A stretch of 64,000 nt of DNA from Minisyncoccota bacterium (GTDB lineage Bacteria; Patescibacteriota; Minisyncoccia; UBA6257; GWB1-50-10), in contig JAGVBB010000002.1 of the NCBI GenBank assembly GCA_020059915.1, positions 62,129-126,128 on the forward strand, given 5' to 3'. The position numbers were made by a program, and so were the translations under genes. Position 1 is the first letter of the stretch, and each line of letters opens with the position of its first letter. The notes beneath the pieces were generated by a model that was not told the origin of the DNA, ran no database searches, and saw nothing but the letters and a program-made list of their open reading frames with translations. Positions 26,542 to 50,216 of the stretch are shown piece after piece.

Positions 26542-26582
26542 TTCTTAAAAAATAACCACCCCTCTTTGATATATAAAATAAA

Positions 26583-32969: not shown

Positions 32970-35411
32970 ATGATTAATAAAACAAAAAGAAAGAGAAAAG
33001 AATATCCCCTCTTATTTACCGCATTTTTTTTTGGTATAGTTGCTTGTTTTATAATTATTTTTGTTTTTGTTGTATTAACAATAAAACGCCTCCCCTCTCC
33101 AGAGAATTTTGGAAACAGGGAAATTCAACAATCAACAAAGCTTTTTGATAGAACAGGAAAAACTCTTATCTATGAAATTCATGGAGAGGAAAAAAGAACA
33201 ATAATTCCTTTTAATGAGATACCTGCTGTAGTAAAACAAACTACCTTAGCGGCTGAAGATGATGATTTTTATAACCAACCGGCATTTGATTGGAAAAGTA
33301 TTATACGAGCATTTTGGAGCAATCTTAAATCTGGAGAAATAACACAAGGTGGTTCAACAATAACTCAACAACTCGTTAAAAAAACCCTACTTTCGGATGA
33401 GCGTACATATACGCGAAAAATAAAAGAATTAATTCTTGCAATAGAATTGGAATCAAAATATTCAAAAGACGATATATTTTATTACTATTTAAATCAAATT
33501 CCTTATGGTTCCACAGCATATGGAATAGAATCAGCATCACAACTTTATTTTAATAAACCAGCAAAAAATCTTAGTTTGGGCGAAGCAGCAATACTCGCGA
33601 GTATGATAAAAGCACCTTCATATTATTCTCCTTGGGGAAGCCATAAAGAGGAGTTGTTCTCTCGTAGAGATTATATATTAGGAAGAATGGTTTCACTTGG
33701 GTATATCAAACAAGAAGATGTTGATAGGGTAAAAAAAGAAAAAGTGACTTTTGCGCCTCCAACGCTTGGAAAAATAACCGCTCCACACTTTGCTCTTGCG
33801 GTACGAGAATATCTTGTACAAAAATACGGGGAATCTGTAGTAACGGGGGGTGGGTTGCGAGTTATAACAACACTTGATACAAAACTCCAAGAAATTGCAG
33901 AAAAAACCGTGAAAGAGGGTGCCCAGAGAAATTCTGAATTATATGGCGGAACAAATGCGTCATTAATTGCTGAGGATCCAAAAACAGGCCAAATTCTTGC
34001 ACTTGTTGGATCAAAAGATTATTTTGCTGATGCGGAACCAAAAGGGTGTACACCAGGAGTAAATTGTACATTTGATGGTAATTTTAATGTCGCGCTTCAG
34101 GGATTACGGCAACCTGGTTCTGCTTTAAAACCATTTGTGTATCTCACTGCTTTTTCTCATGGTTTTTCTCCTAAAACCGTTTTATTTGATGTTCAAACAG
34201 AGTTTGATACTCGAGGAATACCAGAATATAGCTATAGACCAGAAAATTTTGATGGAAAATTTCGTGGCCCAGTTTTTATGGAACAATCATTAGCACAATC
34301 GTTGAATGTTCCAGCAGTTAAAACACTGTATCTTGTTGGTATTGATTCTATTATTAAAAATTTGAATTTATTTGGAGTTACAACACTAAAAGATAAATCC
34401 CGCTATGGATTAACACTTACTCTTGGTGGTGGTGAGGTTCGTCCTATTGAACTTCTTAAAGCATATTCAATGCTTTCTCAAAATGGGGTACTCCATAATC
34501 AAAGTTTTGTTTTAAAAGTTGAAACAAGTAATGGGGATATTTTAGAAGAATATAAAGATAAAAGTGAGCGTGTTTTTGATGAACAATATGTTAAACAAAT
34601 AAATACTATACTCTCAAGTCCTGATCTCCGTTCTCCTATATTTCAATCTAGTCTCGGTCTAACCACATTTGATGGATATGATGTTGCATTAAAAACGGGA
34701 ACCACTCAAGACTACAGAGATGCTTGGGCATTTGGATATACTCCGAATTTAGTGGTTGGAATCTGGGCTGGAAATAATAACAACACACCAATGCACAGCC
34801 AAGGAAGTAGTTTGCTTGCAGCAATCCCTATGTGGAATTCTTTTCTTAGTGAGGCATTAAAACAATTTGAACCTTCTTTTTTTGAAAAACCAGAAATTGT
34901 TTCACTTCCAGAAAAACCAATGCTTAATGGAGAATGGAGAACTTCATTTGGGGTTCATTCAATTCTCCATTTTGTGGATAAAAAAAATCCACAAGGACCA
35001 ATTCCAACAAACCCATGGAATGATTCTCAATATCAAAATTGGGAAGATGCTATCTTTGCGTGGACAAAAGGATCTGGTATTTCTACAACACCTACACAAC
35101 AATCTGGTTCAATATATACTTTTTCTGGACCGATTGGAATTACTTATTTAGAACCAAAATCTGGAACCTTCACAAAAAGTCCCCTTACTATAAAAGCACG
35201 AATTGTTTCTCCTCAATCTGAATTAGAAAAAGTTGAATTATATGCAAATAAAAAATTAATAGTATCATTTCCTATAGCAGGAAATGCATATGTATTCTCT
35301 TATAATTTTTCTGGACCACTAGAAGCACAGAATGCATTTGAAATAAAAGCAAAAAATGTTTCAGGAAATGAAACTGCAGCTTCAACTATTATTTATAAAT
35401 CTGGAAACTAA
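32970..35411 (+). CDS. class A penicillin-binding protein (transglycosylase plus transpeptidase, PBP1A-like)
   Basis: N-terminal TM segment; GT51 motifs (EDDDFYNQPAFDW, GGSTITQQL); TPase SALK, SLN and KTGTT; start moved to the ATG with a GAAGG Shine-Dalgarno sequence because the ORF-track TTG lies inside the terminator. Confidence 0.85.
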   Translation: MINKTKRKRKEYPLLFTAFFFGIVACFIIIFVFVVLTIKRLPSPENFGNREIQQSTKLFDRTGKTLIYEIHGEEKRTIIPFNEIPAVVKQTTLAAEDDDFYNQPAFDWKSIIRAFWSNLKSGEITQGGSTITQQLVKKTLLSDERTYTRKIKELILAIELESKYSKDDIFYYYLNQIPYGSTAYGIESASQLYFNKPAKNLSLGEAAILASMIKAPSYYSPWGSHKEELFSRRDYILGRMVSLGYIKQEDVDRVKKEKVTFAPPTLGKITAPHFALAVREYLVQKYGESVVTGGGLRVITTLDTKLQEIAEKTVKEGAQRNSELYGGTNASLIAEDPKTGQILALVGSKDYFADAEPKGCTPGVNCTFDGNFNVALQGLRQPGSALKPFVYLTAFSHGFSPKTVLFDVQTEFDTRGIPEYSYRPENFDGKFRGPVFMEQSLAQSLNVPAVKTLYLVGIDSIIKNLNLFGVTTLKDKSRYGLTLTLGGGEVRPIELLKAYSMLSQNGVLHNQSFVLKVETSNGDILEEYKDKSERVFDEQYVKQINTILSSPDLRSPIFQSSLGLTTFDGYDVALKTGTTQDYRDAWAFGYTPNLVVGIWAGNNNNTPMHSQGSSLLAAIPMWNSFLSEALKQFEPSFFEKPEIVSLPEKPMLNGEWRTSFGVHSILHFVDKKNPQGPIPTNPWNDSQYQNWEDAIFAWTKGSGISTTPTQQSGSIYTFSGPIGITYLEPKSGTFTKSPLTIKARIVSPQSELEKVELYANKKLIVSFPIAGNAYVFSYNFSGPLEAQNAFEIKAKNVSGNETAASTIIYKSGN

Positions 35412-36517
35412 TTTCTGATTGGCATCACAACATACACAAGCTCTTGTTCGTTTTGTGATTTTATAACAGCGGGTCTATCTGGAGAATTAATTCCCACTAC
35501 TATTTCTTTTGATGAATATATTTTTAATCCATCAAGAAGAAACTTCCAATTAAAAACTATAGAAAGTGGTTCCCCTTTTAATTTAATAGGGATTTTATAA
35601 CAATTCTTTCCTAATGACGCATCAGACGAAATTAACTCCAAATATTTTTTATTTTCTCCAATAACAACGGTGATATCATTTGTTTTTCCAGAAAAACTAC
35701 TTGCAAGTTTTAATGCTTGTATAAATTCCATTCTATCTACAGTAACCTCACATTCAGTTGTTTTTGGTATAAGTGCTTTATATTCAGGAAAAACTCCATC
35801 AACAATACGTGAGATCATGTTTGTTTTTTCCATAATAAATTCCACCTGTCCCTCATCATGTTTTATTATTAAATTCCCTTTTTGTCCTTTTGTAAGTCTT
35901 AATAATTCTTCCGCTGTTTTAAAAGGTATTATCAGAGAGGTCTCTTCAAACGAAGAAGTGGCTTGATTTGAGCTTATAACGCGTTCTGCGAGGCGAAAAC
36001 TGTCCGTTGCGGCGACTATTAGGTGGTCTTGTGAATACTTCAAAAAGACGCCACTTATTTGAGGTCTTATTTCTGAATATTGTGTAGCAATAAAAACTCT
36101 TTCAAAAATATCAGAGAATATTTTAATATCAATCGTTGTAAAAAAATCTTTTGTTGTAAGAGATGGAATAATAGGAAATTCTTTAGCATCGTGTCCTTGA
36201 ATAACCGCCTCATAGTTATCGGTAATTATCGAAAGATTACCACCTGATTCTTCGAGAGTAACTCTATCAGTTGTTAAATTTTTTGAAACAGAAAAAAAGA
36301 TAGATAAAGGCACAGTAACAACACCCTCTTCTATTACTTTTCCGGGTATTGTTTCTGTTACCGCTATTTCTAAATTTGTTGCAACAAAGAAAATTTTTCC
36401 TTGAAACGTCTTTATTAAAACATTTTTTAATATGGGTAGATTGGTTGAAAAACCGATTGCTCGTTCAACAGCACTTAGTCCTTCTATTAAGTTATTCTTT
36501 AATATAATACATTTCAT
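35408..36517 (-). CDS. dnaN: DNA polymerase III beta sliding clamp
   Basis: Three-domain clamp, ~369 aa, N-terminal MKCIILKNNLIEGLSAVERAIG. Confidence 0.85.
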   Translation of the reverse strand: MKCIILKNNLIEGLSAVERAIGFSTNLPILKNVLIKTFQGKIFFVATNLEIAVTETIPGKVIEEGVVTVPLSIFFSVSKNLTTDRVTLEESGGNLSIITDNYEAVIQGHDAKEFPIIPSLTTKDFFTTIDIKIFSDIFERVFIATQYSEIRPQISGVFLKYSQDHLIVAATDSFRLAERVISSNQATSSFEETSLIIPFKTAEELLRLTKGQKGNLIIKHDEGQVEFIMEKTNMISRIVDGVFPEYKALIPKTTECEVTVDRMEFIQALKLASSFSGKTNDITVVIGENKKYLELISSDASLGKNCYKIPIKLKGEPLSIVFNWKFLLDGLKIYSSKEIVVGINSPDRPAVIKSQNEQELVYVVMPIRN

Positions 36518-36689: not shown

Positions 36690-38150
36690 TCAACAAGTTT
36701 TAAACAGTTTTTCTTTTATTAACATCAATTTTTGATTTAAATTTTGATTATGTGTGAGCTCCTTTCCGATTTTTTCACAAGCATGAATAACAGTTGTGTG
36801 GTCACGTTTTCCTAATTTTTCTCCTATATGTGGATATGAAAGTTTTAATATGTCACGGAGAAGAAACATTGCAACTTGTCTTGGTTCTACAACCTCTTGT
36901 TTTCTTCCTCTATCAGTAAGATCTGTTTGAGATATTTCATAAAATTCAGCGACAGTTTTGAGTATATCTTGAGGATTTACATTTTTGGGGGTTATTTGTG
37001 CTGTCTCATTGATAATTTCGTCTAGTTTTTTCTGTGTTATCTTTTGATGTTTGTATTCTTCAAAAAAGACAACCTTATTTAATACTCCTTCAACTTCTCT
37101 GATATTTCTTTGTATTTTTGTTGCTATATATTCCAAAACCCAATCCTCTATTGAAACGTTTTGGTTTTGAACCTTTGTTTTTAATATAGCAAGACGCATC
37201 TCATAATCTGGATAAGAAACATCAGCAATCATACCTCCCTCAAAACGAGATCTAAGACGTTCCTCAAGTGTTGGAATTGCTGCGGGAGATCTATCAGAAG
37301 ATATGATTATTTGCTTATTATTTTCATATAAAGCATTAAATGTATAAAAGAACTCAAGTTCTGTTGCTGGTTTTCCACCGATAAATTGAATGTCGTCGAT
37401 AATAAGCATATCAATGTCCCTATATTTTTTTTTCATATCCTCCATACGTTTATTTCTTACAGACCAAACAACATCATTTATAAATTTTTCTGATGTTGTA
37501 TATAACACACGAACCTTATTTTCATATTTTTGTATAACAGCGTTTCCCGCTGCTTGTAATAGATGAGTTTTTCCAAGTCCAACCCCCCCATAAATAAATA
37601 ATGGATTATATTTTTTTCCTACATCATTAATAATTGCTTGAATTGCAGCAAATGCCAATTCATTTGATGATCCAACAACATATGTATCAAATGAATATTT
37701 TGAATTTAAATTTGTTTTTGGGTTTATTGCTAATTCAGAAATCGTATTTAATTTTTCATCAGTAAGCTCCAAACCTCTTGGCACTTCTTTCTTTTTTACT
37801 ATTTGTGGAGCTGTACTAGTGACGGTGTAGTTTACCTGTTTGATAGAACTATCAACATTTCTTAATGAGCCAAGAATAATTTTATGGTACCTATTTTTTA
37901 CCCATTCTTTTGCAAAATTATTAGGCAAACCAACAAGAGCAATTCCTTCTTTTTCATCTTTATTAACTAATTCACTATTTTTTAACCACGTGAGGAAGTT
38001 TGGCCGTGATATTTGGACTTCAATTTCTCCTAATACCGTTTTCCAAAGTTCGTTGTGATTCATAATATAGTTTTTTTGTTTAATTAATTTCCCCTCTCTG
38101 TTTTCTACTAACGTATCACTCAATGATACGTGTATTATAGAATCTTTCAA
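36690..38150 (-). CDS. dnaA: chromosomal replication initiator DnaA
   Basis: AAA+ Walker A GGVGLGKTHLLQA, box VII, C-terminal HTH DNA-binding domain. Confidence 0.9.
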   Translation of the reverse strand: MKDSIIHVSLSDTLVENREGKLIKQKNYIMNHNELWKTVLGEIEVQISRPNFLTWLKNSELVNKDEKEGIALVGLPNNFAKEWVKNRYHKIILGSLRNVDSSIKQVNYTVTSTAPQIVKKKEVPRGLELTDEKLNTISELAINPKTNLNSKYSFDTYVVGSSNELAFAAIQAIINDVGKKYNPLFIYGGVGLGKTHLLQAAGNAVIQKYENKVRVLYTTSEKFINDVVWSVRNKRMEDMKKKYRDIDMLIIDDIQFIGGKPATELEFFYTFNALYENNKQIIISSDRSPAAIPTLEERLRSRFEGGMIADVSYPDYEMRLAILKTKVQNQNVSIEDWVLEYIATKIQRNIREVEGVLNKVVFFEEYKHQKITQKKLDEIINETAQITPKNVNPQDILKTVAEFYEISQTDLTDRGRKQEVVEPRQVAMFLLRDILKLSYPHIGEKLGKRDHTTVIHACEKIGKELTHNQNLNQKLMLIKEKLFKTC

Positions 38151-38713: not shown

Positions 38714-39385
38714 ATGACAGCATTATTTAATTCATATATATATGAACCAATTCTTTCCGTTTTGTTGTTTATATATAACTCAATCGCGTTTACTGATCTT
38801 GGAATTGCAATAATACTTTTAACAATTTTTATACGAGTTGTGCTGTTCCCATTGTTTTATAAAGGAGCAAAAGATCAGGCAATAATGCAGAAGCTCCAGC
38901 CACATATAAAAAAAATTCAATTAGATCACAAAGACAACAAAGAAGAGCAGGCAAAGTTATTACTAGATCTATATAAAAAATATAGTTTCAATCCGTTTTT
39001 TGGGATTTTTTCTGTAGTAATACAACTTCCTATTTTTTTCGCCCTTTTTAAAATGTTTGGACAAGAATTGGGAAATCTAGGAATTGCAAACACAATGATG
39101 TTTGGTTTTCTTGATTTAGGAACAAAAGGTTTTGTCCTTCCTGTTATCGCTGCTGGATTGCAATATATACAAGGAAAATTATCACTCCCAAATATAAAAT
39201 CACAAGCAGGAGACAATCCGATGGCTTCCATGGGTAAGATGATGATTTATATTGGTCCAATTTTAACTCTTCTCATATTCTCCAACCTTCCATCGGCGCT
39301 CAGTGTGTATTGGATTGTTTCATCTTTATTTGCTGTTGTTCAGCAAATATATATAAATAAAAAATTGCCAAAACTCGAAGATTAG
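38714..39385 (+). CDS. yidC: membrane protein insertase YidC (short form)
   Basis: Five-TM 60 kDa_IMP core, ~223 aa, synteny. Confidence 0.85.
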   Translation: MTALFNSYIYEPILSVLLFIYNSIAFTDLGIAIILLTIFIRVVLFPLFYKGAKDQAIMQKLQPHIKKIQLDHKDNKEEQAKLLLDLYKKYSFNPFFGIFSVVIQLPIFFALFKMFGQELGNLGIANTMMFGFLDLGTKGFVLPVIAAGLQYIQGKLSLPNIKSQAGDNPMASMGKMMIYIGPILTLLIFSNLPSALSVYWIVSSLFAVVQQIYINKKLPKLED

Positions 39386-39402: not shown

Positions 39403-39834
39403 ATGAAAGAGATGATTATTGAGACAGTAAAAGAGTTTATTTCTAATCTCGGGTTTCCAAACGCAGAAGTTTCACTCGACGAAGATAAGAGAAAGGTGAT
39501 TATTCTTATTGAAAATCGGTTTGTTGAGGATAATATAATAAATATTCTTCCAGCATTTGATCATGTAATTAATACCATTCTCAAAAAGAAGGGACTTATT
39601 CCTCATGTCATTGATATAAACTATTACAGAAAAGAAAGAGAAAGGATTATTGTTGAATTAGCAAAAGCGGGCGCAAAGAAGGCGATGATCACTAAACAGG
39701 AAGTTGAACTCCCTCCTATGAATGGATATGAACGAAGAATTGTACACATGGAAATTACCACACACCCAGAACTAACAACAGAGAGTGTTGGTATAGGAAA
39801 AGAAAGACACGTAATGATAAAATTTGTTCAATAA
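39403..39834 (+). CDS. Jag/KhpB RNA-binding protein (KH plus R3H)
   Basis: C-terminal R3H motif ERRIVHMEIT...; synteny after yidC. Confidence 0.75.
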   Translation: MKEMIIETVKEFISNLGFPNAEVSLDEDKRKVIILIENRFVEDNIINILPAFDHVINTILKKKGLIPHVIDINYYRKERERIIVELAKAGAKKAMITKQEVELPPMNGYERRIVHMEITTHPELTTESVGIGKERHVMIKFVQ

Positions 39835-39868
39835 AAAATCTCGCTAGTCACTAGCGGGATTTTTTATG
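39833..39868. terminator. bidirectional terminator between jag and the minus-strand cluster
   Basis: cgctagtcactagcg palindrome flanked by an A-run and a T-run. Confidence 0.55.
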
Positions 39869-41336
39869 GATAGTCGACATGTATGTGAAGCCCTGTGTAA
39901 TTTATACTTCCATCCGCGCCATAACCAGAACAATCAGCGCTTTGAGATCGATAAAAGCTTCCATTTTTATAATATTCACACCACGCACTAACCCCCTTGT
40001 CTTTTATGTAGGTTAATAATAATTCTGTATCTGTTTTTGATTTAGACTCAGCGACAACGTCTGCTGATATTCCCTTATAGTGGTTTGAGTTATTACTTGT
40101 ATGATCCCCACCAGTCAGGCTTGTTATTGCAAATTTTGGAAGTAATTTTCCGGGCCTAAACTCGTTTCCATTTTCATAATCAAACTGAATTGCATCAAGT
40201 AGGGCTATAAGGTTGCTACTCAACACCTTTCCAGAAGTATTGTCACACTGTGTTCCATCTGTTTTACACCCATCGTGACACACATATGGAAATAAACCCT
40301 TTTTAGTATCATCCATAATCCCATGCGCGCTTGTTTTTGATTTTGGTTCGCAATCAGCGTTTGTACTATAGTAGTTTAATTTTATTCCTTGTGCTGCATA
40401 TAGTGTGTTTGTTGTTGAAGCAAGCGCTGATGCCAACCCGCCACGTGCTTCATCCCAACCAGAATATTGGGAAACTGGCGGTGTTGATGATGGTATCTTA
40501 GGAAGAATACACGGAGCTAGATCACTTTTTAATGAGGTCATTATTGTCTTTTCAGCAATATCCCCAACCTCTTGGTTAAGTGCTTTTTGCCACGGCGTCC
40601 TATATGCATATACCAAGCACTGTGCAGAAGATGGCCCAACAGATTTAATAAAATAAGGATATACCCAGATAATAGAGTTTGCTGGAATTGATTCCCCTCC
40701 GGCATAATATTCGTTTGTTGTTATTGTCATGCCGTCTTTATCAAATAAATGACGATATGTACAAACATTATTAACTGGTGGCGTCGTGTTATATAGTTGT
40801 CCGCCAGAATTCCCTGATATGTTTGTTGCTATGTCGCAGGTTGATGATGCGACAGTTGCGCTTAAGCTTGCTTCTGTATTAACCCTATTTTTTTGTATGA
40901 GAGTACCTGTTGATGGTTCTTTTAGTTTTACTAATTCCGGATTTATTGTTTTTAAGAGTAGAAACGAAGCAAAAAGGAGGAGCACTCCCCACAAAGCATC
41001 TTGAATTATTTGTTTTCCCTCACTTTTTGCAGTGACATTCTCTGATTTAACAATAATTATAATTGCTCCATACACAATCATTCCAACCGCAACAATTCCT
41101 GAGATTCCAACAGCAAATTGATACAGGCGGACTATATAGGTTTGTATATCTTGTGGCTCGGAACAAGAAGAAAGTTGGAATCCTGCAATAGGAAGATCTA
41201 TACATGGCGGAGGAAATACAAGTCGCATCGTATCTTGTGCTTGAACAAAAAGAGGTAGGAATGATGTTCCTAAAACAAACAACAAACAGAGGATTAAAAA
41301 TATTTTTTTACTTAAGCGCATATATAAAGTTGTCAT
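39864..41336 (-). CDS. membrane-anchored protein with a C-terminal Peptidase_M15A/M15_3-type (Zn D,D/L,D-peptidase) cell-wall hydrolase domain; last gene of the T4SS-like cluster
   Basis: Signal peptide plus two hydrophobic helices, Cys-rich extracellular region, C-terminal SNHYKGISADVV ... GSINYTGLHIHVDYP matching the SxHxxGxAxD / GxY...HVD zinc-ligand pattern of M15A (MepK/phage endolysin-type) peptidases. Confidence 0.55.
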   Translation of the reverse strand: MTTLYMRLSKKIFLILCLLFVLGTSFLPLFVQAQDTMRLVFPPPCIDLPIAGFQLSSCSEPQDIQTYIVRLYQFAVGISGIVAVGMIVYGAIIIIVKSENVTAKSEGKQIIQDALWGVLLLFASFLLLKTINPELVKLKEPSTGTLIQKNRVNTEASLSATVASSTCDIATNISGNSGGQLYNTTPPVNNVCTYRHLFDKDGMTITTNEYYAGGESIPANSIIWVYPYFIKSVGPSSAQCLVYAYRTPWQKALNQEVGDIAEKTIMTSLKSDLAPCILPKIPSSTPPVSQYSGWDEARGGLASALASTTNTLYAAQGIKLNYYSTNADCEPKSKTSAHGIMDDTKKGLFPYVCHDGCKTDGTQCDNTSGKVLSSNLIALLDAIQFDYENGNEFRPGKLLPKFAITSLTGGDHTSNNSNHYKGISADVVAESKSKTDTELLLTYIKDKGVSAWCEYYKNGSFYRSQSADCSGYGADGSINYTGLHIHVDYP

Positions 41337-42492
41337 ATTTGTTTATAAAGTATAATGATGGTTGTGTTACTATGATATTTTTTGCATCAATGGGTATATT
41401 TTTTATATCAGAGATTTGGACCTGATCTTCTGTTTGTGAATATGTGTCATAGACATATAATAGATCGTCGGTAAATGAAAGATTAGTGATCCAATTAAAT
41501 AAAGAAATATCCGTTTTAGGAACAAAACAAAACGCGGTAGTAACAAGAGAAGAACATTTTTCGGGGAGCGTTTTCTTTGTTGTTGGCACAATGTTTTCAA
41601 AAGAGTTATTTCCAATTACGAATCCATCGTTTTTTGAATAAAAGAAATAAACAGAGAGTTCTGGATTAAGTGAAAAATCTAATAAACCAGATCTAATTGT
41701 TGAAAATAATTTTGTTTTCAAATTATATTGCCAAATGGATGTTGCATATTCATTTCCAAATTTCTCAACAAACAATAATTCATCTCTTGATTTTTTAAAT
41801 ATATCAACATCAAACAGTTTTAGTTTTGGAATAATAACAGTTTTATCGGAATATGATTTTAATGACGAAAGAGATACGACACTTGTTGTTCCCCCTTGAT
41901 CCCAAAGCGCAACAATATCTTGATTGTTAAAATCCCACACAGCGTCAGTTATTGACGAATTTAATGGTGTTATTTTTTCATCCATTGAAGAAAAAATTCC
42001 CCATATTGTTCCTGAATTTGTTGCAAATTTTATTAAAACAGAAGATCCGCCGCGATTTGGTTTTATCATACTAACGTTATTCAGTGGGTTTAGGGCTATT
42101 TTTTCACTCTTTCCGTCTATTACTTTTTTTATTTCTCCATTCTCTGTTATATAAAAAATTCTATTATTTTCCTCATAATACCAATATGATTGCGCGGGTA
42201 CGTCCGAGACTTTTTGAAGTTCTGTGAATGAGGTTTTTATTACTGCTGATTCGCTATAATTTCCACCGTCCCCTGTTTCATTGTTTTCTATTTCCACTAC
42301 ATCTGTCGGTGTCTGCTCATTGTTATCCAACTCCTCTATGAGGGTGTTGGTAGTTGATGTGGATATAGTCGTGTTGCCTTGCTCTTCTGTTGGTGTTGTT
42401 TTAGATACAACAAAATAAATTATCCACGCAATTGTGCCGAGTATAAGAAAAATGATTAGATATTTATATATTGGTCTCATGTTAGTTTCCAA
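41308..42492 (-). CDS. hypothetical bitopic membrane protein with a large extracellular beta-rich domain (cluster gene)
   Basis: N-terminal TM anchor; repeated aromatic/Asn-rich segments; no family recognised. Confidence 0.4.
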   Translation of the reverse strand: METNMRPIYKYLIIFLILGTIAWIIYFVVSKTTPTEEQGNTTISTSTTNTLIEELDNNEQTPTDVVEIENNETGDGGNYSESAVIKTSFTELQKVSDVPAQSYWYYEENNRIFYITENGEIKKVIDGKSEKIALNPLNNVSMIKPNRGGSSVLIKFATNSGTIWGIFSSMDEKITPLNSSITDAVWDFNNQDIVALWDQGGTTSVVSLSSLKSYSDKTVIIPKLKLFDVDIFKKSRDELLFVEKFGNEYATSIWQYNLKTKLFSTIRSGLLDFSLNPELSVYFFYSKNDGFVIGNNSFENIVPTTKKTLPEKCSSLVTTAFCFVPKTDISLFNWITNLSFTDDLLYVYDTYSQTEDQVQISDIKNIPIDAKNIIVTQPSLYFINKYDNFIYALK

Positions 42493-43177
42493 TAAATATT
42501 TTTGTTTGAGTTTTTATTATTTCAAGCAAAGATTTTTTGTTTTGGACATATCCAGTTATAGAAACTGAATTGTTTGAAGTGGTGCTCGGGTTCCCTGTAT
42601 TTATTGTTATTTTATTGTTTGATCCCGTTCCTTTTTTAAGTAATCCAATTTGCCAAGAGAATGAGAGGTCTTCAAATGACTTGGTATTAAAAAAATATGG
42701 AACAGCGGTTATTGAGATATCAGAGTTTTTGGGAACTACATTGTTTATATAAGGTATTTCTAATATAAGTTTTGGTTCTGTTGTTGGTATAGTAATACTT
42801 TTTTGAATCAATACCCCATTCCAATCCACTGAAACCGAAACGAAATTTGTTCTATCAGTTTCAGAGAATACCACCATTGCTTCTTTTTCTCCTGTCCCTT
42901 TTCTTATTCTTTCCCCATTTTTTCTCCACTCAATGGTAGAATTTGACACATCCAACAATGTCCCATTTTGAACCGCCTCAACAGCGAGATACACTTTTGT
43001 TCCATATGAGGGAACCGCCTTTCCAATATATGAAGTTGGGAAAAAATTATCTGCCTTCCAAGTTACTATAAGTTCCGGATTTGCTGCATTTGTAGATAAG
43101 AAAAACCCGAAAAACAAACAAACAAATGTTAATAAAAAGAGATTATGCCGCATGTTTAATTTTTTCTTGTTCTTCAT
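42482..43177 (-). CDS. hypothetical secreted protein (cluster gene)
   Basis: Probable start at the internal Met giving the signal peptide MKNKKKLNMRHNLFLLTFVCLFFGFFLSTNA; the ORF-track start 43330 would overlap the upstream gene by 188 nt. Confidence 0.4.
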   Translation of the reverse strand: MKNKKKLNMRHNLFLLTFVCLFFGFFLSTNAANPELIVTWKADNFFPTSYIGKAVPSYGTKVYLAVEAVQNGTLLDVSNSTIEWRKNGERIRKGTGEKEAMVVFSETDRTNFVSVSVDWNGVLIQKSITIPTTEPKLILEIPYINNVVPKNSDISITAVPYFFNTKSFEDLSFSWQIGLLKKGTGSNNKITINTGNPSTTSNNSVSITGYVQNKKSLLEIIKTQTKIFIGN

Positions 43178-43712
43178 TATGTTCTTGAATAATTGGATTG
43201 TTTTGTGTCCGTAGTGGGGATGACGGCATTGATAAAATCCTCGGTTTATTTGTATTGGATAGAGGCGCTCCCTTATTAACTTTGTTAATTGTTCCAACAA
43301 TTTTACTTCCCCTCGATGCAGATGTTGCAACTTTCATTGCAACAGATCCCGTCCCTCCAGTTGCTGCCCCAACGGCTATTTGTGCTCCTTTCTCTATTAT
43401 ACCTAATTTCTCCGGATGATTCTCTAGATACATAACAACAACAATAGTTGCACACATTGTTGGAAGAAATGGTATGCCCTGAACCATAATTGGAATGAGA
43501 TATCCTTTTAATGGATCATTTAGGACGCTTGATCCACCCTTTTTAAGCCAGTAGTTTTTTACAAATGGCCACAAGACGCTTTGTGCTATCCAACCAAGAA
43601 AACCAAAAGAAAATAAATCACCAAGGAAAGCAATTCCATCGATAATTAACCCAACAACAAAACCGAGAAACATCTCTCCAAGCTCAAATTTGTTTTTTGT
43701 TTTCTGACTCAT
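43143..43712 (-). CDS. hypothetical integral membrane protein (cluster gene)
   Basis: ~4 hydrophobic helices, Gly-rich loop. Confidence 0.4.
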   Translation of the reverse strand: MSQKTKNKFELGEMFLGFVVGLIIDGIAFLGDLFSFGFLGWIAQSVLWPFVKNYWLKKGGSSVLNDPLKGYLIPIMVQGIPFLPTMCATIVVVMYLENHPEKLGIIEKGAQIAVGAATGGTGSVAMKVATSASRGSKIVGTINKVNKGAPLSNTNKPRILSMPSSPLRTQNNPIIQEHNEEQEKIKHAA

Positions 43713-43715
43713 TCT

Positions 43716-45470
43716 TTATGCCAATCCCTTTGATTCTAATACCTGCTCTGGGTTTGTAGTAACTATTTGATCCTCAGTATATGAGGCAATAACTTTCATT
43801 GCTACATGTTTTGCTCCAGCAAAGAAAAGCCCTTCTCCGACGCCCGCCTCTAATAAAAATGCTCGCTCCCCTTCGGTGAGATTGAATGCTGTTGCTACGG
43901 AGTCAATTGAGCCAGGAGACTGCTTCATAAGAATTTGCATTGAAGAGTTTGTGACGATTGGTTTTCCATATTCTGATTTCAAAAAATCTTCCACGTCCTG
44001 TGTTATAGTTGTTATTCCAAGATAATATTTTCTTGCGCGTTTTACTAAACCAAACAAAAATGAAGCAGAGTCTTTATATTTCATCATTAACCACGCCTCA
44101 TCAATAATAAGTGCGCGTTGTTGTAATTTTGACCGCACAAGATTCCAAACAAAGTTTAAAACAATATACATTGCTATCGGGCGGAGCTCTTCTTCTAAAT
44201 CCCTAATTGAAAAAACAATAAGGCGATTTTTTATGTCCACGTTTGTGGGGGCGTTGGTAAATCCAGCATAGGAACCATGAACAAATTTATCAAGTCGAGC
44301 AGCGAGTGTTTGCCCCCCAGATGTATTTGAAAGTATTACTTGTAGATCTTCTAAGAGTGGGGGGTTAATTTCTCCTAGTGTTCCAAAATTATCTGCTGTT
44401 ATATCTCGTGATGCATATGTTTCTGTTACCACTCTATCAAGAAGTGAATCCTCTTCTGGGGTTATAACGCCCAGCATAAGTTTTAATAATCCAGTGAGAT
44501 TTAAAATGTGTGATTTAAATACGTCCGATGGTTCCTCTCCTTCTGGAATAATAGGAATATCAAAAGGATTGACGTGGTTTTGTGACGTGAGTGAGATTTT
44601 AAAGTAACTACCACCTATTGCATTGGAGAGATTCTGATATTCGTTTTCTGGATCAATAATAATAACATTCACCCCAAGCATTAATGATCGCAAGACCTGG
44701 AGTTTTGTGGTGTATGATTTTCCCGCACCAGATGTTGCAAATATTACTTGGTTTGCATTTTGAAGTGAAAATCTATCAAAGATTATCAAGCTATTGTTGT
44801 GCATATTGACCCCATATAATATCCCCTTTTCAGAAGATAAGTCAGGAGAAACAAAAGGAAAGAGAGATGATGCTGGGCTTGAATTCAATGGTGTTGTTAT
44901 TTCAAGTTTATCCCTATTTATCGGAAGTGCTGTGGAGTTAAATCCCTCAAGTTGTTTGAATAGTGCGGGTTTTATATACACAAGCTTACTCTCGAGTGCT
45001 GATTGAATTTTTTCCTCAAGCTTTCTTAGTCCATCCAGTGTTTGTGCATAGATGGTTATATATACTCCAACGCGGAACAGTTTTTCTCTCGCTTGCAACA
45101 AAGAGTCACGAAGTTGTTCGACGTCCTCATATGCTGTTTCTAGCATTGGGTCTCTCACAAGCCCCTTTTCTTGTTTATCCCAAAGTTCTGCCTCTATGTT
45201 TGCAACCTTCTTTTTTAAATCTTTTAATGCAAATGCAGTATCCATTGGGTGAACAAACACAGATATATCCATCATTTCTGCCATGTTGATAATTGGGGAA
45301 AACCACCCACTAGATACATAGCGAGGATAAGTAAAAACAAACAAAGTTTTCACGAAATAATCACCAAGCTTTAAGTAGCTTGAACTAACCTCAAGTCCGG
45401 ATGGGGCAATAATATTTGGTAGATCCTTATTTGATGGCGTATATGCTTGTGGAACTGATATTTTTATCAT
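43716..45470 (-). CDS. VirB4/TraE-type T4SS ATPase, C-terminal ATPase portion
   Basis: Walker A FATSGAGKSYTT, IIDPENEY, Walker B IIDEAWLMM, ...GWFSPII region typical of VirB4 family. Confidence 0.7.
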   Translation of the reverse strand: MIKISVPQAYTPSNKDLPNIIAPSGLEVSSSYLKLGDYFVKTLFVFTYPRYVSSGWFSPIINMAEMMDISVFVHPMDTAFALKDLKKKVANIEAELWDKQEKGLVRDPMLETAYEDVEQLRDSLLQAREKLFRVGVYITIYAQTLDGLRKLEEKIQSALESKLVYIKPALFKQLEGFNSTALPINRDKLEITTPLNSSPASSLFPFVSPDLSSEKGILYGVNMHNNSLIIFDRFSLQNANQVIFATSGAGKSYTTKLQVLRSLMLGVNVIIIDPENEYQNLSNAIGGSYFKISLTSQNHVNPFDIPIIPEGEEPSDVFKSHILNLTGLLKLMLGVITPEEDSLLDRVVTETYASRDITADNFGTLGEINPPLLEDLQVILSNTSGGQTLAARLDKFVHGSYAGFTNAPTNVDIKNRLIVFSIRDLEEELRPIAMYIVLNFVWNLVRSKLQQRALIIDEAWLMMKYKDSASFLFGLVKRARKYYLGITTITQDVEDFLKSEYGKPIVTNSSMQILMKQSPGSIDSVATAFNLTEGERAFLLEAGVGEGLFFAGAKHVAMKVIASYTEDQIVTTNPEQVLESKGLA

Positions 45471-45472
45471 AA

Positions 45473-46114
45473 TTATTTTTTTGCAATTTGCAGATCCTTT
45501 TTTTCTATTAACTGTGGATTATAGAGATTATAGAAAAGTTCAGTGAGCTCCTCGTCATTTAATTCAGAAACATGCAATCCGATTTGTTCCAGTCCTTCTT
45601 TTACTTCAATAACCCGGTGTTCTAATTGTTCCAATTTTGACTGGAGTGTTGCTTGTGCCTCTGCATCCCGTGATTTTTGAGAACCAAACAAAGAAGAAAG
45701 AACCCCAAATGATGGCGTATTTACAATGCCTTCATAAGGAATCACCACGAAGAATGTTTTTGAAATTATTGCATTTTGATCAACTAGTGTTTTTATAAAA
45801 TTTATATATTCGTCAATTTGGATCTTTAATAATTCATTTTCTTCCTGCTCTCTCCGTTCCCTCATTTTATCGAGATAGGAATCAACATTAACCTTTCTTG
45901 AGTGTATAAAGAGTTGTGTTGGATAATCGATGGTATTTAAAAAATTTTGAAAACTACCCAAAATAAGATTTTGTTCAGCGTCTGATTTTAAATCAAAATT
46001 TATTCCACTAACGATAAGTATTCGACGGATCCCGCCATCTTTTAAATAGACGATTCCATCTTTTATTTCACTTATTTCTACAAATTTTTGTGTTGGTGTA
46101 TTTACCTCTGCCAT
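45473..46114 (-). CDS. VirB4-family N-terminal domain encoded as a separate ORF
   Basis: EISEIKDGIVYLKDGGIRRILIVSGINFDLKSDAEQNLILGSFQNFLNTIDYPTQLFIHSRKV resembles the CagE_TrbE_VirB N-terminal domain of Gram-positive VirB4 (PrgJ/TraE/TcpF); ends 2 nt before the ATPase ORF in a different frame. Confidence 0.6.
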   Translation of the reverse strand: MAEVNTPTQKFVEISEIKDGIVYLKDGGIRRILIVSGINFDLKSDAEQNLILGSFQNFLNTIDYPTQLFIHSRKVNVDSYLDKMRERREQEENELLKIQIDEYINFIKTLVDQNAIISKTFFVVIPYEGIVNTPSFGVLSSLFGSQKSRDAEAQATLQSKLEQLEHRVIEVKEGLEQIGLHVSELNDEELTELFYNLYNPQLIEKKDLQIAKK

Positions 46115-46134: not shown

Positions 46135-46635
46135 TTAATAATCAATGCGTTTTGCCGTCCTTTTTTCTCCAGTAAGATAGGTTACTACCTCATATTTCCC
46201 CTTTTTGTTTTCCCTCACTGTTTCGTGCTCCTGTTTGAATAACTTGCCCGTTGTTATAGACTCAGCAACGTTTTTGATCTTTTCTTGTATACTCATAGCT
46301 CGACGTATTGATGAAAGTTTTTCAATAGAGCTGGTGTCTATTGAAGTTTCTTCCATTGCGCGCTCCCATACATATATGCGGGGATTCCAAAAATAACGAA
46401 ATGCTGATTGTGCTACCTTGTGGAGATCTTGTCCATTTACTTTTACAAAAGCAAAGGAAATTGCTATTCCAACAACAATCATAGAAAGTATAATCCATAA
46501 AAAAATGGAGAAGATATAGTAAAGAACAATTGAAACAACAGCAGCACCACCAATAAGTAAAAATTGTTGGAGTGTAAAAAATGATATTATCTTTGGTTTT
46601 TCCTCTATAAATTGAGGTACCTGAAAGGTAGACAT
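46135..46635 (-). CDS. PrgI/VirB3-like small two-TM protein
   Basis: FQVPQFIEEKPKIISFFTLQQFLLIGGAAVV then two hydrophobic helices; the pattern and its position directly upstream of VirB4 match PrgI/TcpE-family proteins. Confidence 0.5.
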   Translation of the reverse strand: MSTFQVPQFIEEKPKIISFFTLQQFLLIGGAAVVSIVLYYIFSIFLWIILSMIVVGIAISFAFVKVNGQDLHKVAQSAFRYFWNPRIYVWERAMEETSIDTSSIEKLSSIRRAMSIQEKIKNVAESITTGKLFKQEHETVRENKKGKYEVVTYLTGEKRTAKRIDY

Positions 46636-46698: not shown

Positions 46699-47778
46699 TT
46701 ATTTTAGATTTATAATATTTCCTTTGATTACCGATTGAGTGCTGTCTGGTTTTTCCTCTTGGATTTTAATCTCTGGTAACGGCGATTTGATATTTTCCTG
46801 TCCATTTTTGAAAATATTTGATATCCACGATGATTTTTTTTCTTGTTTTTCCTCTGGAACTACTGCTGAGTCCATTATTTTTTTATCTGTTTCTTGCGCT
46901 GTTTTTGGTGTTAGTGTTATAACTTCTGGCGTTTGGACCGTGTTTATTTGTTGGGTCATTGGTGAGCTCTTCGTCTCTGATGGTTTGATAATATCTTCTT
47001 CTCTACTCATTCGCTCAAGTGCCCCAACACTTATTACCTCTTCCTCTGCCCCAACCGCAGGTTTCAGCCCAGTTCGTATCTCATTATAATGAATTGTTGT
47101 TTTTTGTTCTGGTTTTAAAAAGGAGAAAGGATTTGGTCCAGATTCAATTTTTGCTTTTGGAATTTTTTTCTCACTCGATTCGGATGATGAAGGTATAAAT
47201 TTATTGAATGGGGTTTCTGGTCTTTTTTCTTCATGTGCATCTCTTCTAAAAAATGTTGGCTCTTCCTGAAGAATTAGTGGAGCATCTTCTGATGTTTCAA
47301 TTTTTATTGGTGAAGACTCTTCATTTTTAGTAAAGAAATCTGGTTTAATAACCTCTTCTTTTTTTTCAAGCTCTTCTGTGTCTTTGCCACCTTCTATTTT
47401 TTTCTCAATTACATCCCTAATTTGCTCCTTTTCTGCAAGGACCTCTTCTATTGGTTTATAAATATCATTTATTTCCTCTTCATAGGGCGCAAGAAGACGG
47501 TTATATATTTCATCAGTAAGAACCCTTGCGTGTTCAAAATTGAGAAATAACTGCTCCCCGACCTCTCTGGAAAGATTTCTGAGGGATATAAAACCCATAA
47601 GGGTCAATCCAACAAGTTGTTCAAGAATTACTGATTTTTCTGGACTTAGATAGTGTTCTCGTTCAATTCCTGAAAGCACACGTTTTGTTTGTTCCGACTC
47701 AAAAACTGCCCGCAGAGATGCTGGTATCGCTTCGTATCGTTCATCAAATATGTCTGATGTAAATAGTGAATAGTCCAT
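46699..47778 (-). CDS. hypothetical acidic, Glu/Lys/Pro-rich and probably disordered cytoplasmic protein (cluster gene)
   Basis: No TM segments; structured N-terminal ~110 aa, then low-complexity sequence. Confidence 0.4.
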   Translation of the reverse strand: MDYSLFTSDIFDERYEAIPASLRAVFESEQTKRVLSGIEREHYLSPEKSVILEQLVGLTLMGFISLRNLSREVGEQLFLNFEHARVLTDEIYNRLLAPYEEEINDIYKPIEEVLAEKEQIRDVIEKKIEGGKDTEELEKKEEVIKPDFFTKNEESSPIKIETSEDAPLILQEEPTFFRRDAHEEKRPETPFNKFIPSSSESSEKKIPKAKIESGPNPFSFLKPEQKTTIHYNEIRTGLKPAVGAEEEVISVGALERMSREEDIIKPSETKSSPMTQQINTVQTPEVITLTPKTAQETDKKIMDSAVVPEEKQEKKSSWISNIFKNGQENIKSPLPEIKIQEEKPDSTQSVIKGNIINLK

Positions 47779-50216
47779 TATCTTTTTTTACCCCCCTTTT
47801 TTTGTTTATTTCTCATTTCAACAAGATCATTGCTAAATCTGTCCCGTTCTTTTTCAAGTCCCTTGCGTGCTGAGTTAAGATATTCTTTTTGATTATCGGT
47901 AGCGCCACTAATTACCTCATCAAGTTTTGGTAATATCTCCTGATTAATTGCTTCTATGCGGTTTGTGATATTTTTCTCATTATATTTCCCTTTTGTGAGA
48001 GTCGTTTTCCAATTTGAAACCTGCTCTTTAGTTCTGTTTATTGTTTCGTCAATTGCAACAATTGTTGGATCTGTTGTATTTTTTAATTCGCCAAGTTTTT
48101 CAACGCGCTTCTTTTCTAGATCACTTACATGTTCTTCTAGTGCGTCAAAAACTCTCTTTGTCTCTGGTGAATTTCCCAGAAGACCGTTGAGTTTATATTG
48201 AAGTGACGACGCACGATCTTGGTAGAATTTTGGATCAAGTCCATCAATTGCGTTTTTGTCTGCAAGATCCCTTGTTTTCTTAATTTCACTTTCAAACTCT
48301 TGGATTGTTTCTGGTGTTTCAAAATTCTTTTTAATAACGTTTTCCATTGTTTCTCGTTTCTTTTCAACAAACTTCTTTTCACTCTCAGTTTTTACTTCTT
48401 TTTGTTGTTTGAGAAGCTTTGAGTATTCATTGCTGAGGTCACCCTCATTCATGTCGCCCCACTTACCACGCAACGCAGAAATGGTTTTTTGTTGTGATTC
48501 TTCAAATTTCTTGTTAAATTCTTTAAGATTTGAAATCTTGAACCCTTTTGTTTTAAGTTCCTCAAGAGTCTTAAGGAGTTTTTCGTGATCTTTTTCACGA
48601 TCTTCTGGTGTTTTGTCTTTCTCGTCTTTTTTCTCTTTCTCTTTTATAATCCCAGCACCCTGAAATGCACCCTTGAGTAAACCATCAGCCCAACCACCCC
48701 TCTTAATTTCCTTACTTGCCTGTCCAGCGAGTGCGGATTCAATTGGTTTACCAACTTTTTGTCCCAAACTACCAACTTTGCGCGCAAATAGTCCACCTGT
48801 CATATTTTTAAGTGACATCATTGTGCGTGACTTTCCAGCAATATCTTTATTTGCATCATTTAATGATTTTTCCAACTCCTTCTTTTCTTCTGGAGAAAGT
48901 TTTTTATCATTTCTTATTTCTTTAAGGTCTTTATGGTAGGTATCAAATTTTTTCCTCTTTTGTTCCATATCTTCCCCAGTTCCCTTAAGATTCTTACCCA
49001 TTAATCCCATTTTTGTAGCAAATTTTCCACCCCATTCGGATCGTGAAAGGCGCGTACCTATGTTTGCCGCTTTGTTCTTACCATATGTCTTTGCCCCCTT
49101 CATAAGGCCATCTTTTGCTTTATTTGCAAGAGACGCTCCTTCAATTCCCATTTTTTGAGCAACAGTAATTGCACCAATCATAAGTCCAGCAACTACAATC
49201 ATTTGAGTTCCATTTTGTACAATCTGTGCTAATGGTCCTGGCAGTGTTTCAGCAATACCAGCAAGCTTTCCCCTGTTTGATGGATCTGCAAGATTTTCTG
49301 CCGCAACGAGCGAGAGATAAACAAAGAAAGATGCCGCAGGAGCAAAGAAGGTGTATTTCCAAAAATTTGACCACCACTGTGCATTATATGATTTGAGTCC
49401 AGGGAATACCCAAAACAACCAGGCAAGTGGCGCAAGCACGAGAAGAAATGTAAGGGCAACATACCGCACCAAAAACATACCAGCGAGCATCAAAAGTACA
49501 ATTGTTGCAAGAAGTGTAAAGAATACTATAAAGAATAACCCAGCAATTGAGGAAAGAACCTGAACACCAAAGGTAAAAAAACCACCTCCTTCTTGTGCGG
49601 GGTCTGGTGGAAGTGGGTCATCAGACTCTTCTAATAAGAATTTTTGTGGCCCAAATGCATTTGCAAGTACCTCGGTAAGCCCACTTCCTGGTACCAAGCT
49701 ACTACCACCACTTGGGTCAATTCTTCCTACAAAAAACCACGTGAGTGTATTGGAAAAATCTATAAGTGTTCCCGCAATAACAAAACTGAAATTTACCACT
49801 ACTGCCGCGATAATAAGGTTGAGTAACAATTTTTTTGCCCCATATGATTGGACGCGAATTATAGTCATGAACGCCATAATGACGGTCAGAAGAACAAAGC
49901 CAAGATTTGCTATATCTCTTGATACTCTCCAACCAATGTCAGCAATTGGATTTGCAGCAGGGTCCGCAACATACATATTGAGATCAACGAGGGTAAATTT
50001 AACAAGCCATGCGCCTATAGCAAAAAATATTCCCGCAATAAAGTTAAATATGTAGGCGATTAATTTAAAAACACCAGTTACAACACCGGAGAGGGAAATA
50101 CCAAAAAGTGCATGTGAGACGTTCGGTGTAAGTACTCCTGCAGCAAAAACAAAACCCAAAACAATCCCCAGGATTATATGTTTTCTATGTTGTTTTAGGA
50201 TTGTTGTTATGGGCAT
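47778..50216 (-). CDS. VirB6/TrbL-like polytopic membrane protein with a ~400-aa Lys/Glu-rich coiled-coil C-terminal tail
   Basis: Signal/TM1 plus ~7 more hydrophobic helices in the first ~400 aa with Trp/Phe-rich loops; C-terminal half is highly charged and predicted alpha-helical. Confidence 0.45.
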   Translation of the reverse strand: MPITTILKQHRKHIILGIVLGFVFAAGVLTPNVSHALFGISLSGVVTGVFKLIAYIFNFIAGIFFAIGAWLVKFTLVDLNMYVADPAANPIADIGWRVSRDIANLGFVLLTVIMAFMTIIRVQSYGAKKLLLNLIIAAVVVNFSFVIAGTLIDFSNTLTWFFVGRIDPSGGSSLVPGSGLTEVLANAFGPQKFLLEESDDPLPPDPAQEGGGFFTFGVQVLSSIAGLFFIVFFTLLATIVLLMLAGMFLVRYVALTFLLVLAPLAWLFWVFPGLKSYNAQWWSNFWKYTFFAPAASFFVYLSLVAAENLADPSNRGKLAGIAETLPGPLAQIVQNGTQMIVVAGLMIGAITVAQKMGIEGASLANKAKDGLMKGAKTYGKNKAANIGTRLSRSEWGGKFATKMGLMGKNLKGTGEDMEQKRKKFDTYHKDLKEIRNDKKLSPEEKKELEKSLNDANKDIAGKSRTMMSLKNMTGGLFARKVGSLGQKVGKPIESALAGQASKEIKRGGWADGLLKGAFQGAGIIKEKEKKDEKDKTPEDREKDHEKLLKTLEELKTKGFKISNLKEFNKKFEESQQKTISALRGKWGDMNEGDLSNEYSKLLKQQKEVKTESEKKFVEKKRETMENVIKKNFETPETIQEFESEIKKTRDLADKNAIDGLDPKFYQDRASSLQYKLNGLLGNSPETKRVFDALEEHVSDLEKKRVEKLGELKNTTDPTIVAIDETINRTKEQVSNWKTTLTKGKYNEKNITNRIEAINQEILPKLDEVISGATDNQKEYLNSARKGLEKERDRFSNDLVEMRNKQKKGGKKR

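Follow-up and report, generated by a model that had tools for sequence, protein, structure and literature searches.

Is a VirB4 gene that is read as two separate open reading frames (ORFs) a protein naturally made of two polypeptides, or is it an ATPase gene broken by a frameshift? The question is raised by a locus on the minus strand of the window (the whole stretch of 64,000 nucleotides that was analyzed), where the original prediction placed an ORF of 213 amino acids and another of 584, in different frames and 2 nucleotides apart. Re-reading of the coordinates and of the junction confirmed this layout:

45473..46114, minus strand: TrsD-like or 'TraC-like' ORF (N-ORF), 213 aa, from MAEVNTPTQKF to DLQIAKK and stop
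43716..45470, minus strand: short-form VirB4 P-loop ATPase ORF (middle region and P-loop domain), 584 aa, beginning MIKISVPQ
45468..45482, minus strand: gene junction, with an A7 run at 45476-45482, TAA at 45473-45475, a spacer at 45471-45472 and ATG at 45468-45470

Read along the minus strand, the junction is GCA AAA AAA TAA tt ATG ATA AAA, with the 2-nt spacer in lower case. With the N-ORF taken as frame 0, the ATPase ORF lies in the -1 frame, which stays open for 16 codons ahead of the ATPase ATG. The A7 run, which the original prediction left unmentioned, directly precedes the N-ORF stop. One added A would join the frames as ...LQIAKK-IIMIKISVPQ..., and a sequencing or frameshift artefact therefore had to be excluded. 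The evidence given below makes it very likely that the locus encodes a conserved and functional two-gene VirB4 (a TrsD-like protein plus an ATPase) and not a broken gene. A two-gene VirB4 is already known from published work as the normal arrangement in these ultra-small bacteria.

The larger ORF carries the predicted ATPase motifs, with Walker A (GAGKS) at amino acids 248-252 (44715-44729) and Walker B/DEAW (IIDEAW) at amino acids 455-460 (44091-44108). It is matched by Pfam P-loop_TraG (E 2.3e-26, 92.8 bits, cut-off 25.8), AAA_10 and DUF87, aligns with the VirB4 C-terminal domain of PDB 4AG5 (E 7e-44), and shares 64-94% identity with its full-length orthologues. The CD1110-like VirB4 model NF045971 scores 367.9 bits, above its 325-bit cut-off, with only profile positions 182-733 of 752 covered, while the TIGR00929 and TraC-F models score below their cut-offs. 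These matches identify the 584-aa product as a putative VirB4/TraC-family ATPase of a type IV secretion system (T4SS), in a short, CD1110-like form.

The small ORF had been taken for the VirB4 N-terminal domain, and it does match the N-terminal part of profiles for full-length VirB4 (NF045975 positions 103-233 of 894, NF045971 positions 4-110 of 752, and TIGR00929 positions 18-175 of 792). Because both ORFs are collinear on full-length VirB4 profiles, the suggestion that their combined ~797 aa amount to an intact VirB4 also holds. The NCBIfam TrsD/TraD model NF041427 matches the N-ORF over positions 27-200 of 201 with E 1.8e-9, although its 37.7 bits fall below the 200-bit cut-off, and a protein identical to the N-ORF carries the precomputed annotation PF26593 'TraC-like'. 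A local Pfam scan of the small ORF returned no significant family, even at E = 10, and sequence searches against PDB chains gave chance matches with the single sequence and none with a 58-sequence profile. When an AF2 model of the N-ORF (pLDDT 77.7) was searched against the PDB with Foldseek, the top 13 matches were all TrwK/VirB4 chains with probability 1.00, at moderate TM-scores of 0.39-0.47. Comparison of the family profile with the single TrsD sequence of plasmid pSK41 by hhalign was weak (probability 5%). Given this result and the sub-cut-off NCBIfam score, the tie to plasmid TrsD rests on HMM E-values, synteny and identity of the cut point. The N-ORF has 1072 homologues, the best 120 of which (58-100% identity) are all 209-225 aa long. 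The C-termini of the best homologues stop at one shared aligned position, and the alignment contains 44 invariant columns. Judged from its profile matches and predicted fold, the small ORF behaves as a TrsD/'TraC-like' protein, a family that the original prediction did not recognize, and corresponds to the detached N-terminal subdomain of VirB4.

Comparison with orthologous loci, which had been proposed as a check on the split, was made with 80 GTDB species-representative loci, or 81 loci including the window. The split is kept in 80/80 relatives. In all 81 loci the N-ORF stands by itself and the ATPase ORF after it begins at homologous residue 1-15, whereas the gap between the two varies from -29 to +277 nt, with an ATGA overlap or 1-12 nt in most relatives. 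The ATPase ORF is in relative frame 0, +1 or -1 in 19, 36 and 26 loci, respectively, and in the 19 in-frame loci a stop codon still parts the two ORFs. The observation that the frames differ is thus correct for the window, but it is without meaning. Relatives at 99%, 92%, 86% and 83% identity are all split, which rules out a disruption private to the window lineage. The first of these, an independent Logan assembly (SRR22387846), has a junction identical to that of the window with SNPs nearby, and in the 92% and 86% relatives the two ORFs overlap by ATGA and lie 2 nt apart, respectively. In addition, the identical 213-aa protein is on record from both NCBI and JGI sources, on 2 contigs. The same homologous cut in 81/81 loci, whatever the spacing or frame, together with the independent assembly, bears out a genuine two-polypeptide VirB4.

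No fused ancestor was found among close relatives of the window locus. Among the best 150 family representatives only two are fusions, of 797 and 898 aa (P0123 and P0267). The 797-aa natural fusion occurs in the same setting as the split loci, from PrgI through to jag-yidC-dnaA, and is a Rosetta-stone link that joins the N-terminal and ATPase halves.

A start-codon-targeting GIY-YIG/MITE element is present in relatives and not in the window. Eight loci bearing this element gave no match to Rfam at gathering thresholds, and no description of it was found in the literature searched.

The genes surrounding the pair in the window are the following:

46135..46635, minus strand: PrgI/VirB3-like membrane protein directly upstream of the TrsD-like gene (matched by Pfam PrgI at 30.7 bits against a cut-off of 27)
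46699..47778, minus strand: 359-aa protein, a conserved cluster member, with the TrbL-like gene on one side and the PrgI-like gene on the other (its orthologues at the same position have 354 and 357 aa)
47778..50216, minus strand: 812-aa polytopic membrane protein, TrbL/VirB6-like by orthology (PF19590 TrbL_3 in orthologues from loci L083 and L084)
43143..43712, minus strand: 189-aa hydrophobic protein directly downstream of the ATPase gene (a 189-aa orthologue is likewise placed in L083)
39864..41336, minus strand: 490-aa protein at the distal cluster end, with a weak T4SS-pilin-like segment
36690..38150, minus strand: dnaA, ~1.7 kb from the cluster end
35408-36517: dnaN
38714-39385: yidC
39403-39834: jag/R3H

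The window cluster is intact and syntenic with the L083 and L084 loci, and orthologues of the PrgI-like gene sit at the same position in relatives. The 812-aa protein of the window itself gave no match in a local Pfam scan, profile scans returned no family match for the 359-aa and 189-aa proteins, and the match of PF18895 T4SS_pilin to the 490-aa protein (E 3e-4, 21.2 bits) lies below its 26.6-bit cut-off. Since dnaA, dnaN, yidC and jag flank the cluster, it is ori-proximal and chromosomal. With VirB4, TrsD, PrgI and a VirB6-like protein encoded near dnaA and no adjacent relaxase, the cluster fits a T4SS of the Patescibacteria type, as judged from gene content. No relaxase or coupling-protein (T4CP) family was matched among the scanned cluster ORFs, and for this reason the role of the cluster in the cell is probably not conjugation.

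Most of this arrangement has been described, a point that the original prediction did not note. Quinonero-Coronel et al. (2025) reported that, of the T4SS components in Patescibacteria, TrsD is the most abundant, that it is distantly homologous to the N-terminus of VirB4 and that 1,664 TrsD homologues are encoded near virB4, and noted the dnaA-proximal location of these systems (PMC12102498). In a cultivated saccharibacterium, TrsD, PrgI and VirB6 were reported to be essential for epibiotic growth (PMC12102498, PMC10633639); the T4SS of Ca. Southlakia epibionticum comprises SEML1_0006-0019 (Wang et al. 2023, PMC10633639). The window shares with Patescibacteria T4SSs chromosomal, dnaA-proximal genes for TrsD, VirB4, PrgI/VirB3, a VirB6/TrbL-like protein and a pilin-like protein, with TrsD beside virB4. 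It shows no essential difference from them and is one further example of the Paceibacteria type. TrsD is handled in PMC12102498 as a separate component without an assigned function, and it is not stated explicitly there that TrsD and VirB4 are the two parts of a single protein divided at a constant point. Guglielmini et al. 2014 do not name TrsD in their main text, so that its resemblance to the VirB4 N-terminus is cited here from PMC12102498 only, and the phrase 'split VirB4' was not found in the literature searched.

The same order of genes is found in the staphylococcal plasmids pGO1 and pSK41 (MPF_FATA subclass), where, as in the window, a small membrane protein is followed by TrsD and then by a VirB4-like ATPase. 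In pSK41, trsD is immediately upstream of the gene for a 672-aa VirB4-like ATPase (TraE), and residue 31 of the window ATPase aligns with TraE residue 48 (E 3e-37), indicating the same homologous start point, although the two ATPases share only 22% identity. Unlike the window cluster, the pSK41 system is plasmid-borne and conjugative and has both a relaxase and a VirD4-like coupling protein. Full-length VirB4 proteins, such as TrwK of R388 (PDB 7O41/8RTB) and the CD1110 family of clostridial ICEs, have the same domains in the same order, but are single polypeptides of 750-830 aa, whereas in the window the first ~200 residues form a separate protein.

Taken together, VirB4 in the Patescibacteria T4SS and in Gram-positive conjugation systems of the pGO1/pSK41 subclass is the product of two adjacent genes, in the order PrgI/VirB3, TrsD, VirB4. 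The TrsD-like protein of ~210 aa accounts for the initial ~200 residues of a full-length VirB4, and the ATPase of ~585 aa contains the remaining N-terminal domain and the P-loop motor. Because the TrsD and VirB4 genes are close or overlapping, they are most likely transcribed together and coupled in translation. It is also most likely that the TrsD-like protein and the ATPase associate physically, joining non-covalently with the VirB3-like protein at the membrane and rebuilding the complete VirB4 architecture.

Among other explanations, the one that survives best, although improbable, is that the small protein descends from the VirB4 N-terminus but is now an independent accessory factor outside the ATPase complex. 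TrsD has been given no function, additional C-terminal sequence brings 36 of the 150 best family representatives to 260-499 aa, and TrsD homologues in Gracilibacteria are not adjacent to virB4 (PMC12102498), so that the pairing of the two genes is not universally obligatory. However, what is missing from the ATPase ORF is precisely the part provided by the small protein, the two genes are neighbors in an unvarying order at all 81 loci, and the rare fusions rejoin the halves in their original order. Moreover, TrsD, along with the T4SS, is reported to be essential in Ca. Southlakia. These observations favor the two-gene VirB4.

Programmed -1 frameshifting or transcriptional slippage at A_AAA_AAA_UAA, which would yield some fused VirB4 beside the separate proteins, is very unlikely. 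The junction contains a formal X_XXY_YYZ heptamer in register, the -1 ATPase frame is open upstream of its ATG as described above, and a fused protein is viable, as the natural fusions demonstrate. As in dnaX-type -1 frameshift sites, the A_AAA_AAA heptamer lies just before the 0-frame stop. In contrast to such sites, the heptamer is not conserved, no downstream stimulatory structure is present (MFE -7.8 kcal/mol, z = -0.07 versus shuffles), and the downstream gene has its own conserved ATG. The -1 frame, open overlap and heptamer occur together in only 5/81 loci, and in close relatives that keep the A7 run the ATPase is read in different frames (gaps of 4 in L002, 1 in L017 and 3 in L064). 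The A-run is explained by a conserved Lys-Lys C-terminus in a genome of 36% GC. There is likewise only a slim chance that occasional slippage in this genome yields a minor fused VirB4 isoform of 799 aa, which would set the ratio of tethered to free N-terminal module.

The second possibility of the original prediction, an inactivating frameshift in a decaying locus, is refuted by the comparative data, and it is extremely unlikely that an intact virB4 was broken by a 1-nt homopolymer deletion. Such a deletion would be consistent with the A7 run directly before the stop, where one extra A would fuse the frames, but not with 81/81 loci cut at the same position with unrelated junction geometries. 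Nor does a relic agree with the absence of fused relatives, the high conservation of both halves (including the invariant N-ORF columns), the intact, syntenic and ori-proximal cluster typical of Patescibacteria, or an arrangement common to pSK41. Homopolymers are error-prone and the split falls exactly at the A7 run, yet a sequencing or assembly indel that artificially divides one ORF is hardly credible when the same 213-aa protein comes from two sources, SRR22387846 repeats the junction amid neighboring SNPs, and all relatives are split.

What the two-gene VirB4 described here adds to the literature is that the division falls at a constant point, which staphylococcal plasmids share, and that two rare natural fusions (797 and 898 aa) exist; these additions leave the understanding of the system unchanged. 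Because TrsD behaves like the first ~200 residues of VirB4 set apart as a protein of their own, it is predicted to dock onto the ATPase and the VirB3-like protein. For annotation, pairs of a TrsD-like gene and a short VirB4 gene in Patescibacteria and in pGO1-type systems should be neither flagged as frameshifted pseudogenes nor merged.

The window carries two minus-strand ORFs that lie 2 nt apart in different frames, as the original prediction had them, and both the coordinates and the junction sequence show this layout to be accurate:

45473-46114, minus strand: small, TrsD-like ORF (213 aa)
45473-45475, minus strand: stop codon of the small ORF
45476-45482: A7 run abutting that stop codon
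45468-45470, minus strand: ATG of the ATPase ORF, 2 nt past the small-ORF stop
43716-45470, minus strand: VirB4-type ATPase ORF (584 aa)

Read along the coding strand, the junction is ...CTG CAA ATT GCA AAA AAA TAA tt ATG ATA AAA.... The ATPase ORF lies in frame -1 with respect to the small ORF, and no stop interrupts that frame over the 16 codons ahead of the ATG. The two frames would be fused by a single additional A or by a -1 slip on A_AAA_AAA, and the suspicion of an indel at this site was reasonable and needed testing.

Judged by its sequence, the 584-aa ORF encodes an ATPase of the VirB4 type: it matches the Pfam families P-loop_TraG, AAA_10 and DUF87 as well as the solved VirB4 C-terminal domain (PDB 4AG5, E 7e-44), and it carries GAGKS (Walker A) at residues 248-252 and IIDEAW at residues 455-460. 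It also passes the curated cut-off of the NCBIfam CD1110-family VirB4-like ATPase (367.9 bits; cut-off 325), covering only positions 182-733 of the 752 in that profile. By the profile matches, the missing part of VirB4 is supplied by the 213-aa ORF, which covers positions 4-110 of the same profile and also matches a mycoplasma VirB4 profile (103-233) and TIGR00929 (18-175). Among profiles, TrsD/TraD, a family found on Gram-positive conjugative plasmids, matches it best (E 1.8e-9, positions 27-200 of 201), at a score of 37.7 bits that is well under the 200-bit cut-off of that model; for an identical 213-aa protein, public collections record PF26593 (Pfam 'TraC-like'). When an AlphaFold2 model of the small ORF (58 homologues as input, mean pLDDT 77.7) was compared with the PDB by Foldseek, the 13 top matches were all R388 TrwK/VirB4 chains (probability 1.00, E 7e-4 to 6e-3, query TM-score 0.39-0.47).

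Searching with the small ORF gave 1072 homologues, of which the best 120 (at least 58% identity) are all 209-225 aa long, and the best homologues share an aligned C-terminal end, ...LEIAKK/Q. Both genes were located in 80 loci of species-representative genomes from Paceibacterota, Jorgensen-, Wolfe- and Brennerbacteria and other Patescibacteria. Together with the window, 81 of 81 loci have a separate ATPase ORF after the small ORF, and in every one its start aligns with residues 1-15 of the window ATPase. The junction itself varies: in 12 loci the two ORFs share the 4 nt ATGA, 11 loci have a gap of a single nucleotide, and the others range between an overlap of 29 nt and a spacer of 277 nt. 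Relative to the small ORF, frame 0 is used by the ATPase ORF of 19 loci, frame +1 by that of 36 and frame -1 by that of 26, and in the 19 in-frame loci a stop codon still parts the two ORFs. An independent assembly, made from another sequencing run and with a protein 99% identical, reproduces the window junction exactly, with SNPs nearby. A 92% relative has GCA AAA AAA ACA TGA overlapping the ATPase ATG, and in an 86% relative the ORFs stand 2 nt apart, with bases that differ from those of the window. Within the same genomes (L001-L080, the relatives' loci), conservation is consistently higher in the ATPase half than in the TrsD-like half (for example, 92-94% versus 83% identity in the nearest species, and 75-80% versus about 60% in most others).

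Programmed frameshifting, by which -1 slippage at the A_AAA_AAA heptamer would join the two frames, has a low probability. In the window the heptamer is perfect in form, but only 5 of the 81 loci have any X_XXY_YYZ motif together with an open overlap and an ATPase ORF in frame -1, and RNA folding of the 85 nt downstream of the junction is no better than that of shuffles (z = -0.07). The A-run is a trivial consequence of the conserved Lys-Lys C-terminus in a genome of 36% GC. A lineage-specific frameshift and a sequencing error are both ruled out, because all 81 loci are split whatever their spacing or frame, the independent assembly has the identical junction, and the 92% and 86% relatives are split as well. 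The comparison of orthologous loci called for by the original prediction thus finds the split conserved, and of the two outcomes then envisaged, the genuine two-polypeptide split is the right one, with two ORFs and a common cut point throughout.

This genuine split is already known, and the window pair is a typical member of a published arrangement. In a survey of Patescibacteria T4SS genes (Quinonero-Coronel et al. 2025, PMC12102498), TrsD is the commonest component, with 2,272 homologues, 1,664 of them encoded near virB4; in monoderm systems it is otherwise confined to the pGO1 subclass, and it is essential in Ca. Southlakia epibionticum. Plasmid pSK41 likewise has trsD (25886-26569) followed after 14 nt by a separate, 672-aa VirB4-like ATPase. 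From its residue 48 onward this ATPase aligns with the window ATPase from residue 31 (E 3e-37), and therefore the cut point is the same in both.

The surrounding genes are arranged as follows:

35408-36517, minus strand: dnaN
36690-38150, minus strand: dnaA
38714-39385, plus strand: yidC
39403-39834, plus strand: jag/R3H
39864 to about 52186, minus strand: T4SS genes

With dnaN-dnaA-yidC-jag beside the T4SS, the window spans the chromosomal replication-origin region. The T4SS cluster begins 30 nt past jag/R3H and about 1.7 kb from dnaA, a placement like that of many Patescibacteria T4SS loci, which often adjoin dnaA (PMC12102498). In coordinate order its products include a protein in which one segment weakly resembles a pilin, then the ATPase and the TrsD-like protein, and beyond them a PrgI/VirB3-like protein and a membrane protein of 812 aa, the orthologues of which have TrbL_3. 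Among the cluster ORFs scanned, none matched a relaxase or coupling-protein family. The cluster is a chromosomal system and not a decaying mobile element; given this position and the split in 81 of 81 loci, the idea that an inactivating frameshift had left a decaying relic was wrong. A mechanically listed 282-aa ORF with a TTG start (42482-43330, minus strand) overlaps a 189-aa ORF (43143-43712, minus strand) by 188 nt, and its true start is probably further downstream; neither ORF matched a family profile.

An exhaustive small-ORF search of 1.84 billion cluster representatives gave 2300 relatives at E ≤ 0.001. Among the best 150 of these, 95 are 200-259 aa long, 36 are 260-499 aa and 17 are shorter than 200 aa, and only 2 are of fusion length. 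The fusion P0123 (797 aa; L085 544-2937, from the MAG GCA_964615945.1) shares 48% identity with the small ORF in its residues 7-217 and 59% with the ATPase in its residues 230-789, and lies in the same PrgI ... jag-yidC-rnpA-dnaA context. The fusion P0267 (898 aa) has a Pro/Ala-rich linker between its halves. Residue 451 of P0123 aligns with residue 445 of TrwK, which makes the fused protein collinear with classical VirB4 and equates the small ORF with about the first 200 residues of the N-terminal domain of VirB4. By a Rosetta-stone argument, such rare fusions suggest that the two polypeptides may act jointly, which falls short of proof because each fusion is known from a single MAG contig or cluster, where secondary fusion and assembly error cannot be distinguished. 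The 36 relatives of 260-499 aa, P0132, P0136, P0154, P0162, P0211, P0232 and P0240 included, have a TrsD-like domain with extra C- or N-terminal sequence that is not the ATPase.

Most likely, the TrsD-like and ATPase genes would be co-transcribed and translationally coupled, and their products would then assemble at the membrane, in trans and together with the VirB3-like protein, rebuilding a complete VirB4.

In several orthologous loci, long TrsD-VirB4 spacers contain a palindrome-bounded insert, ATGAA-T-CCCGTTAGAGA ... TCTCTAACGGG-ATGAA, of which the 64-kb window has no copy. Copies lie at these positions of the relatives' loci:

L001: 4648-4919
L015: 4642-4759
L024: 4644-4764
L027: 3385-3502, 4645-4762
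L032: 1738-1837, 8386-8485
L039: 4074-4189
L048: 3302-3407, 4660-4765, 6528-6633
L049: 4660-4775, 6538-6643
L059: 2136-2410, 2417-2534

The long copies of 272-275 nt (L001, L059) encode an 86-94-aa GIY-YIG nuclease, and the remaining ones are MITE-like derivatives of 100-121 nt with the same ends. Each of the 16 copies in these loci lies at the junction of two genes, with the ATG of the downstream gene directly after the 3' arm and the upstream stop in the left ATGA, within the 5' arm or just ahead of it. In operons of Paceibacteria-like genomes the element is placed exactly at start codons, the TrsD-VirB4 junction being among its sites, and a metagenome scan found it in at least 120 further stretches (80 listed as L086-L165).

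An ATG is abutted by 74 of 124 copies. The variable fourth position of ATGNN holds the same base in the left and the right copy in 48 of 52 cases (30 expected), which indicates a 5-bp target-site duplication, usually ATGAA or ATGGA; copies not abutting an ATG have flanking duplications such as GTAAA or GTTTA. The frame from the left ATG begins MNPVRD...; 24 of 67 copies keep it open to a stop no more than 7 nt from the host ATG, and 1 more keeps it open beyond that ATG. The other two frames are equally open in only 3 of 134 cases. In the full-length L059 copy the nuclease is encoded in this frame and starts at the duplicated host ATG; the nuclease TGA overlaps the regenerated host ATG in L059 and L001 alike. 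At gathering thresholds no Rfam family matched in eight loci that bear the element, and we found no description in the literature of a start-codon-targeting palindrome-bounded element. These sequence features suggest a mobile element that targets start codons for insertion, uses the host start codon to begin its own ORF and hands ribosomes back to the host gene, and it is worth a separate follow-up.
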